The position numbers were made by a program, and so were the translations under genes. DNA of 64,000 nt from Raja brachyura (Eukaryota). The stretch covers positions 123,070,001-123,134,000 of the forward strand of contig OY740782.1 in the NCBI GenBank assembly GCA_963514005.1. Direction: 5' to 3'. Of this stretch, positions 52,936-55,139 are shown piece after piece (the stretch's first letter is position 1; each line of letters opens with the position of its first letter). The notes below the pieces were generated by a model. It saw only the letters and a program-made list of their open reading frames with translations. It made no database searches and was not told the DNA's origin.

Positions 52936-53148
52936 TAAGTGTCTACCTTGTAAGTAGTTAATCTTTCATCCCCACCAGAGTTCTGGATTAGTCGAAGGAA
53001 TGAATAGGACACTAAAGAGTGTGGGAGTTAGTTTTGACCTACAGGCCCTGGATAGAGGAGAACCAAGAAAGGACAATGGGGCTATTGACCCTCCTTTTTA
53101 TCCTGAGGTTGACACAGATGGGCTGGACTTGGGGAACAACCATTGCAC

Positions 53149-54448
53149 GAAGACGTCCTGAATAAGGCTGAGAACTGTCCTTACGTTTATAACACTGACT
53201 AAGATGGATCAATTACCACAGGTTCTTGAAGTAACCAGAAAAAGGTGGCAGCTGATCCTGGAGCTACAGACTGAGCTGAAACAGATGAAAAATGTGCTCA
53301 CCAATGCCCAGTCTGAAAATGACCATCTCACTTCCATCAAACAGCAGCTGAAGGAGAGCAATCAGGTTGTGGAGTTGCAAAGCCTTGATTTTAGTGCAAC
53401 TCAGTGACAGAACTGGATTGAGGTAAATCACAGCCGGGATCAAAGTGAGGAGCTCAGTTGGGATGGATCAGACAGAAAGTCGGCATAGATGTAGAAGGAA
53501 GAAGATTGCTGCTTTCACACCTGATGGACAACTTGGTTGAAAGAACGTCTTTACAGATCAGGAGGAAGTGCAAAGCCTTTGGTCACTACTTTGGAAAGAC
53601 GAACCACATTTGATCAATCATTTTGAAGCATTTCGAGCTCTATCGTGTGACCAAGGGTCTAGAGAGAGAGAGAAACTGAACATTTTGAAAAAGATGGACC
53701 TCTTGAGAGAGATTATGCATAACCCTGACCAGGAAGACAATGACTCAGACCTGTAGGGTAATCAGTGTGATGACAATCAGGACATTGATAAGGATGGCAA
53801 CAATGGCATTCCTGATGAGAGGGGCAATTGCCGTTTTGCTCCCAACCCTGACCAGATCGATGCCAATGGTAACGGCAGAGGAGACACCTGCAAGGAAGAC
53901 TTTGACAACAACAACATCCCATATATCTATGACATGTGCCCCGAGAACAGCGCCATCAGTGAGACTGACCTGAGGAAGTTCCAAAGGGGACGATGCAGAT
54001 CGATCCTAACTGGGTGGCGCGCAACAAGGGCAGGGAGTTGCTGCAGACCGGCAACTCTGACCCTGGCCCTGTTGTCAGATTCAAGGAGTTCAATGACATC
54101 AACTTCAGTGGCACCTTTCACGTTAACACAGACCGCTATCTACGCCGGCTTTGTCTTTGGCTTCCAGTCCAGAAGCCGGTTCTATGTGGTGATGTGGACG
54201 TAGGTCACCCAAACCTACTGGGAGGAGAAGCTGTCCAAAGCTGGTATCTCGCTCAAGGTGGTGAACCCTACCACGGGCCGAGAGCGGGGAGCACCTGTGC
54301 AACGTTCTCCGAAGAGACTGGCAACACCCTCAGACAGGTGTGAACTTTGTGGCACGTCCCCATCGGCTGAAAGGATTACACCGCCTACATGTGGCACCTG
54401 ATCCCCCATCAACCCTAAACAGGCTTCATCTGGATGGTGGTCAATGAA
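53149..54448 (+). pseudogene. Intronless thrombospondin (THBS2-like) fragment: type-3 repeats plus C-terminal lectin-like domain, interrupted and decayed
   Basis: [111 protein letters not shown]. Confidence 0.88.
53210..53715 (+). pseudogene. Scrambled intronless fragments of a CRACR2A/CRACR2B/RAB44-family coiled-coil region
   Basis: DQEEVQSLWSLLWKDEPHLINHFEAF resembles CRACR2A [51 protein letters not shown] resembles [25 protein letters not shown]. Confidence 0.7.
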
Positions 54449-54597
54449 GAGAGTGAGAACTGGTGGTCATACCTTTGGGATACTATGATGCATTGTGGCT
54501 CTATCATTCTGCTCTAATCTTTATCATTAAATTTTTGCGACCATTGTGTGTCTATCGAGGACTGTGAATGTTATCATGTATGATAAAAAGGAGGGAA

Positions 54598-55139
54598 TGA
54601 AAGAGCTAATTGCAAAATCTAATATAGTTTACAACATGGAGTCGTTTTTCTGGTCCAATAGAACAAAAGAATGGCTTGCTGCCAAGTGTGAATGACTTTG
54701 CAAATTATATGGAACACAATATGGAGGACAGGTTGTCTTTTTAATAACGATATTAAGATGGAATCCTGCAGCACTAACATGTGGTTCTGTCAAGGCCATA
54801 AAGAAGCCAAGATTGAAAACATAGCTGATGCTGCAGAGATAAACAATAACTTGTTCTTGGATGAGCTTGATTTGGACCCAATTTTGTCCTATATTCAGAA
54901 AGGCTTTAGAATCTTTCAATCATGCCATATTCAGACTTGGTACGTGTGTTTTACTGATAAGAAAAATGTATAACTGCAGTAATTCCTCTTTGTTCTGTGA
55001 GTGGAGCCCGAGAAGCACTGAGCAACATTTGTGCTTTTTGTAGATCTCGCCACTCCCGTCTGACGAATCGATTAAAGATTGGCTTGGTTTACCTTTAACC
55101 AGTTTGTTGTTGTCTGCTTTTAAAAAACAAACTTTGACA
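54598..55139 (+). repeat. 3' LTR of the cargo-carrying ERV
   Basis: TG directly after the PPT; ATTAAA at 55071-55076; ends ctttgaCA. Confidence 0.75.

Follow-up and report, generated by a model that had tools for sequence, protein, structure and literature searches.

Retroviral genomes of the v-sis, v-mpl and v-sea type are defective and helper-dependent, and in them host cDNA occupies the place of env, following the env signal peptide. Conclusions on how retroviruses acquire host genes, by read-through and splicing or by template switching onto co-packaged mRNA, usually draw on isolated end products. Genome-wide surveys of gene capture by endogenous retroviruses (ERVs) in vertebrates may exist. 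Our literature search, with most subscription papers outside its scope, found no account of the skate ERV family described below or of permuted retrocopies carried between LTRs.

Tan et al. (2016) describe LTR-mediated retroposition, including the mouse 'Super' retrocopy in which four parental genes are flanked by MERVL (PMC5131818). The portions of that paper used here also present HERV-K with FAM8A1, a vertebrate ERV with processed host mRNA and microsimilarity at its joins, and describe for other animals the same template-switch mechanism that is proposed below. The maize LTR element Bs1 made three separate transductions of host segments and was later re-mobilised, according to the excerpts considered (PMC13317346, PMC5131818), and the corresponding part of a zebrafish study describes ERVs whose internal regions were replaced by cellular genes (PMC8672886).

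There is one decayed, 5'-truncated member of a widespread defective class I ERV family in the window, by which we mean the whole stretch of 64,000 nucleotides analysed here (G000:C2:123070001-123134000, from a 2.7-Gb genome). The class I (gamma/epsilon-like) assignment is a sequence-based one, drawn from the LTRs and TSDs, the PBS and PPT, and the gamma-type integrase C-terminus and Env of a relative; the copies contain no RT usable for phylogeny. Judged by its spliced cargo, its replaced internal ORF, the microhomology at some of its joins and its re-mobilisation, the family is a case of LTR-mediated retroposition in a class I ERV. As in the cases of PMC5131818, to the extent that the compared sections describe them, partial intron-free host mRNA replaces internal ORFs between LTRs, there is microsimilarity at the switches, several parents contributed, secondary retroposition followed and poly(A) is lacking.

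In the compared parts of PMC5131818, 'Super' is a single young locus (divergence ~0.001), whereas the skate family occupies at least 40 and probably hundreds of loci. Moreover, the skate family has surviving intermediates, nesting of one capture within another and an exact circular permutation; as far as the compared parts of PMC5131818 go, the main text makes no mention of nesting and the nine supplements make none of permutation. HERV-K with FAM8A1 has one parent gene, and the same parts mention neither nesting nor permutation for it, whereas the skate family has both. Bs1, as the excerpts present it, is a plant element that forms a chimeric ORF; the skate family, in contrast, is a vertebrate class I ERV in which env is replaced and the surviving copies are non-coding. 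The zebrafish ERVs resemble the skate family in carrying host gene sequence between LTRs, but in the part of PMC8672886 used here the replacement is whole and the host genes are repurposed for expression, whereas the skate family gives no sign of function.

The layout of the window copy is given in Table 1. Read from the leader, the cargo consists of the start of THBS2 exon 16, a RASEF-like late exon, BICD, the resumed late exon, RASEF-like early exons, and THBS2 from the end of exon 16 to the start of exon 21, followed by the env tail. The THBS2 exon numbers were assigned by analogy with the human gene and are presumably equivalent to its numbering, and those of the RASEF-like, BICD and ZNF276 pieces simply follow the order of hits. 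The element starts at about 52428 and there is no 5' LTR within the window; the TSD of this copy is hence not readable.

Table 1. Features of the ERV copy in the window (positions are those of the window)
Feature	Position	Strand	Evidence or remark
Remnant of non-coding internal sequence, 5' of the integrase piece	52428-52566	+	86-89% to full-length copies L032, L041, L034
Later LINE-like repeat fragment, foreign to the family	52567-52936	.	Repeat families D1/D18; breaks a stretch that is contiguous in full copies
Integrase remnant, internally deleted	52937-53049	+	84-94% to env-bearing relatives L170-L173
Final part of the integrase frame, overlapped by the env signal peptide (ATG 53076)	53057-53136	+	91-92% over 78-79 nt to L172, L173, L174
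Short spacer, possibly a remnant of an upstream THBS2 exon	53137-53155	+	12 nt resemble part of an upstream host THBS2 exon, with one mismatch; too short to assign
THBS2 exon '16', 5' part (first capture)	53156-53204	+	93% to host exon, G000:C8
RASEF/CRACR2A-like late exon piece (start of second capture)	53201-53230	+	87% to host exon, G000:C20; 4-nt overlap with THBS2
BICD family, two spliced exon pieces with internal deletion (third capture)	53230-53382	+	Pfam BicD E 2e-11; exon-exon join at 53356
RASEF-like late exon, resumed after BICD insert	53397-53428	+	94% to host; the C11 copy (stage 2) has it joined without a break to 53201-53230
RASEF-like early exons (3, 4, 8, start of 9), after the late exon	53421-53712	+	88-90% to host exons; spliced joins at 53557 and 53707; 8-nt microhomology jump
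THBS2 continued: last part of exon '16', exons '17'-'20' and the opening ~17 nt of exon '21'	53713-54449	+	80-100% to host exons; decayed, with shared deletions
Env membrane-proximal Trp-rich region and transmembrane anchor remnant	54450-54575	+	76% to env tail of L171
Polypurine tract	54585-54597	+	Sequence
3' LTR, TG...CA, 542 bp	54598-55139	+	LTR matches; paired with a 5' LTR in five full copies

The original prediction had read this region as a retrovirus remnant with an integrase motif at 52967-53017, an ATG at 53076 opening a hydrophobic peptide, and a Trp-rich stretch near 54455 ahead of a PPT and a TG...CA LTR, and each of these elements lies where it had been placed. Its recognition of thrombospondin type-3 repeats and the C-terminal domain is borne out by Pfam matches to TSP_3 (E 5.9e-9) and TSP_C (E 4.9e-10), and the THBS2 identity by the top PDB match, which is thrombospondin-2 (E 2.3e-36). 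About 1.3 kb had been taken as intronless thrombospondin sequence. This stretch is indeed intron-free and of host origin, but positions 53201-53712 derive from RASEF/CRACR2A-like and BICD sequence instead. The acceptor-like motif at ~53044 is within integrase-derived sequence (94% to the env-bearing relative L171 over 53016-53049), and it comes near the ATG only because the window copy lacks ~230-280 nt found in fuller copies.

Relatives that bear env and no cargo were found through an integrase stretch that is retained only in early copies. In L172-L174 the same signal peptide runs on into non-host sequence, which is Env-like in L174. The relative L171 carries a gamma-type transmembrane subunit (TLV_coat E 1.7e-5, above the cut-off) that ends in the same Trp-rich stretch and hydrophobic anchor, with 76% identity to the window and 86% to the stage-1 copy described below. 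There are also Pfam matches to MLVIN_C in L171 (E 5.5e-6) and in the stage-1 copy L164 (E 1.6e-4), both below the curated cut-off. The matches to the signal peptide and to the tail are in separate relatives, and a single env-intact relative with both flanks was not found among the five examined of the 40 listed loci. Because env-bearing relatives share the signal peptide and the Trp-rich, transmembrane tail, the host cargo almost certainly replaces env, such that a captured spliced mRNA stands in the env position. The flanks accordingly belong to one ERV family, the same junctions recur at many loci, and the claimed retroviral capture of host mRNA into the env locus is upheld, with THBS2 lying between the env signal peptide and the env tail.

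Another search for an env parent was set aside. Among 78 TLV_coat matches, the 30 loci followed up share neither the leader nor the tail, and L159 proved to be an unrelated ERV that adjoins a cargo copy. As a side observation, a distinct and decayed ERV with remnants of gag, pol and env (L167-L168, G000:C5:64.69-64.70 Mb) immediately precedes a four-capture copy. In its env it is similar to the abundant family that accounts for the 78 TLV_coat matches, which could be a candidate supplier of enzymes in trans.

The four host donors are found on four chromosomes of the same assembly: THBS2 on C8, a RASEF/CRACR2A-like gene on C20, BICD on C16 and ZNF276 on C17. The THBS2 cargo is 80-100% identical to the exons on C8 versus 70-77% to the paralogue on C9, and the BICD piece is 96-100% identical to host exons on C16 versus 71% to the paralogue on C20. 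The closest named proteins for the cargo are those of skates and rays; the RASEF-like piece has no match in the ESM Atlas. Alignment to the host THBS2 gene confirmed the exon-exon junctions and the absence of introns. The window copy is spliced at 8 of 8 testable junctions, with eight host introns skipped (0.7-3.0 kb where measured), including five of 665-3042 nt in the THBS2 part. Likewise, there is no intron read-through at 14 host exon junctions in 38 copies, a test that left out three duplicate loci (L100, L103, L104); the identities also left out four short rows.

The captures are nested within one another. The RASEF-like piece lies inside THBS2 exon 16, and BICD and, in most copies, ZNF276 lie inside the RASEF-like piece. 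There are three nested captures in the window copy, and most other copies contain four, with ~2 kb of ZNF276 mRNA added. The ZNF276 insert site corresponds to 53540-53546 of the window and, among the first 30 loci, it is uninterrupted only in the window, L002 and L003.

Intermediates of this series survive side by side. A copy on C29 carries THBS2 only, with exon 16 whole (stage 1), and a copy on C11 carries THBS2 and the RASEF-like piece and still has unbroken host sequence where BICD was later inserted (stage 2); the C11 copy also retains 15 nt of THBS2 that are lost in later stages. These two copies keep host bases that are absent later, and therefore they are not deletion products of later stages. 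The window copy and L003 add BICD (stage 3), and the remaining copies add ZNF276 (stage 4). Stages 1 and 2 are each represented by one truncated copy in the genome, and contigs of all four public runs compared, which represent four organisms, also contain the stage-1 join.

In a host-rooted THBS2 tree, whose bootstrap had not settled, the C29 copy branches first (100/96), the window copy and L003 fall outside, and 36 rows form one star-like clade (100/99) with end branches of median 0.056. This tree supports the order of stages 1, 3 and 4; a tree of the RASEF-like part only (214 columns) gave no support for the order of stages. There are 51 sites at which late copies share a non-host base, and the host base is present at 14 of them in the window copy, at 13 in L003, at 12 of 22 covered in C29 and at 4 in L002. 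The pre-ZNF276 status of the window copy is drawn from the tree and from these 14 host-like sites. The copy L002/L050 is without ZNF276 yet lies inside the late clade and has the late state at 44 of 51 sites, so that secondary loss of the insert probably occurs. Among late copies (L031-L049, L094-L107) the ZNF276 cargo has repeatedly lost segments lying between repeats of 7-8 nt (from the 3'UTR to exon 4, from exon 2 to exon 4, and inside the 3'UTR), and many copies have a tandem duplication in the env tail. Both could mark sub-lineages that are open to further ordering.

The ZNF276 cargo is arranged in an unusual order, wherein mRNA positions 1393-2152 (exon 10, exon 11 and the 3'UTR) are followed by positions 155-1396 (from the middle of exon 2 through to the opening bases of exon 10). 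This is one circularly permuted lap of ~2.0 kb with an overlap of 4-7 nt, and the 3'UTR is complete in L097. The host ZNF276 gene has the normal exon order. The closing join connects mid-exon 2 to mid-3'UTR at a 7-nt microhomology, for which no GT/GC-AG placement exists at any shift. Similarly, the RASEF-like piece has late before early exons, joined at an 8-nt microhomology, and is not a full lap, with ~95 codons missing. The microhomologies at the three measured joins, which were chosen after inspection, are 7, 8 and 4 nt (chance per random pair 0.0007, 0.0002 and 0.019), and the return from RASEF to THBS2 shows ~1 nt. Two short linkers have no assigned origin.

It is very probable that serial template switching by reverse transcriptase built the nested cargo, which was then amplified. 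Host mRNAs would have been acquired one at a time by switching at short matching sequences, and at each capture the enzyme making the minus strand would have switched template twice, onto a co-packaged mRNA and back. For ZNF276, and in part for the RASEF-like piece, the enzyme may have copied the mRNA toward its 5' end and then made a third switch, re-entering the intact 3' part of the same mRNA. Perhaps synthesis stopped at the end left by RNase H at the first entry, which would yield an exact permutation; we regard the chances for this step as evenly balanced. The enzyme would then have returned to the viral RNA at its point of departure. Subsequently, the chimera likely spread through the genome as a non-coding passenger by means of the enzymes of related viruses.

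The boldest reading is that re-entry into a linear mRNA, with a stop set by RNase H, gave the exact permutation, that the family preserves this event together with a partial second one and a four-capture series at hundreds of copies, and that such re-entry is a general route to permuted or shuffled genes in vertebrate germlines. We put this forward tentatively, as slightly less than an even prospect. The one-lap permutation of ZNF276 makes a sharp prediction on RNase H and offers a possible route to circularly permuted genes. The surviving intermediates display the order of capture and the anatomy of the junctions directly, which speaks for repeated template switching.

One alternative keeps the same serial capture but derives the permuted ZNF276 from circular cDNA or RNA, joined up at the 7-nt microhomology and entering by one crossover or one lap of reverse transcription. 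A circle closed in this manner would yield the same product as re-entry, and the single exact lap, the 4-7 nt overlap and the presence of the same 7-nt motif at both sides of the insert are all expected from a single crossover. However, a microhomology-closed cDNA circle needs an extra, unobserved intermediate, and the RASEF-like piece exhibits the same late-before-early order without a full lap. The location of the closing join, in mid-exon and mid-UTR without splice sites, excludes an ordinary back-spliced circRNA; a retroposed circRNA of this kind was rejected, since a join that allows no donor or acceptor placement is not a back-splice. We consider a circle a rather unlikely source of the ZNF276 insert and re-entry into the linear mRNA the likelier route.

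The coding state of the family bears on whether the first capture was ever of use to the virus. The signal peptide is out of frame with THBS2, which the original prediction had ascribed to decay of the window copy. The frame is indeed lost there, but this is a family-wide state; it applies to 21 of 23 copies, 18 of which have an identical offset, among them those on C29 and C11 and in the window. At the other end, 30 of 31 copies preserve the frame from THBS2 into the env tail, and the reading frame of the stage-1 copy passes uninterrupted through this join. Deletions of 19 and 5 nt that break the frame in the THBS2 part are common to the window copy, L003 and at least 80% of late copies, and 25 of 30 copies have a stop close to where exon 20 ends. 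For ZNF276 exon 4, private changes yield a pN/pS of 0.78, calculated without transition correction, and 19 new stops in 28 copies. On this sequence evidence, the cargo decays near-neutrally and is not protein-coding in the surviving copies. The v-sis, v-mpl and v-sea genomes express an in-frame fusion under selection, whereas the skate family has an out-of-frame 5' join and near-neutral decay. Thus, the predicted analogy to v-sis and v-mpl does not extend to an expressed fusion, given that 5' join and the frame-breaking deletions and stop shared within THBS2.

Nevertheless, the first capture might have made an expressed signal-THBS2-transmembrane protein of the v-sis, v-mpl or v-sea type that aided the virus, with the frame lost before the surviving copies split. 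The insert lies exactly between the env signal peptide and the membrane anchor, the 3' join is in frame, and an early deletion may have left the short spacer as its scar. Yet a 3' join falls in frame by chance one time in three, the 5' offset is common to both early-stage copies, and most copies share the deletions and the stop. Later captures also split THBS2, and the pN/pS of the ZNF276 cargo points the same way. We judge an early fusion protein to be improbable.

Independent LINE retrocopies into an ERV, or a provirus in host introns that captured exons by splicing or read-through, are hardly credible, for although the genome is rich in LINE RT and the ZNF276 break is no more than ~10 nt from an exon edge, the pieces begin and end within exons, the four donors are on four different chromosomes, target sequence is replaced at 3 of 4 inserts, and the 3' piece of ZNF276 holds the spliced 9/10 join in 26 of 38 copies and hence was not spliced into the virus. 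The missing poly(A) tail noted in the original prediction is confirmed, with a longest A run of 5 in 53100-54600. The captured pieces have no TSD of their own either, and both observations argue against LINE retroposition. A LINE-made processed pseudogene was rejected on this A run and on the end of THBS2 ~17 nt into exon 21.

With the cargo stretch as query there were 617 first-look candidates, 40 of which were scored and 40/40 matched at 79-100%; with the 3' LTR as query there were 956, of which 40 were scored, matching at 84-89%. These totals are candidates and not copy numbers, and dispersed copies were demonstrated on more than 20 contigs. The star-like clade of dispersed copies with distinct TSDs indicates secondary mobilisation of the chimera. 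Full elements, as seen in twenty 10-kb stretches, are ~6 kb and comprise an LTR, 1.5-2.4 kb of internal sequence, the integrase remnant, leader, cargo, tail, PPT and LTR. The primer site after the 5' LTR matches genomic tRNA-Ser(AGA). The 5' internal region has no long frames and, in L032 and L164, no Pfam match; L164 contains motifs that we take to be RT/RNase H-like.

There are five valid TG...CA LTR pairs among nine tried, and all five are bounded by a 4-bp TSD. Four pairs were dropped before dating, namely L036 (3' LTR interrupted), L035 and L048 (LTRs not placed) and L050, the last because the same downstream flank at both LTRs marks a local duplication. The identity between the LTRs of the five valid pairs is 91.6-94.8% (K2P 0.055-0.090). 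Assuming a rate of at most 1e-9 per site per year, the family would be tens of millions of years old.

A 223-amino acid 'thrombospondin-2-like' protein of Leucoraja erinacea (P0002) begins with RASEF-derived residues and contains the deletions and frame shifts of this family. By these features it is a copy of the ERV family annotated as a host gene, placing the family in Leucoraja erinacea as well. The end of the window LTR and 360 nt of its flank (window 55094-55500) are present in single contigs, at 99-100%, in runs of three organisms (X1, X2 and X6). This suggests that the window insertion is common to these three organisms, one of which is possibly the species of the window. The 3' flank has no coverage in run X8, which proves nothing about absence. 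Decayed THBS2, BICD, RASEF-like and ZNF276 sequences scattered over many loci would confuse gene counts and RNA-seq mapping in these fishes.

Other features of the window are separate from this element. There is a 961-codon open stretch at 58760-61642 (+) with endonuclease and RT domains (Pfam RVT_1 E 6e-34), representing a young LINE, and LINE RT fragments are located at 3-986 (-) and 48187-48849 (-). A 179-codon open stretch at 19974-20510 (-) is gag-like by eye and has no Pfam match. Finally, a low-complexity array rich in GGT and GGC extends over ~800 bp at 27464-28302 (repeat family D5).
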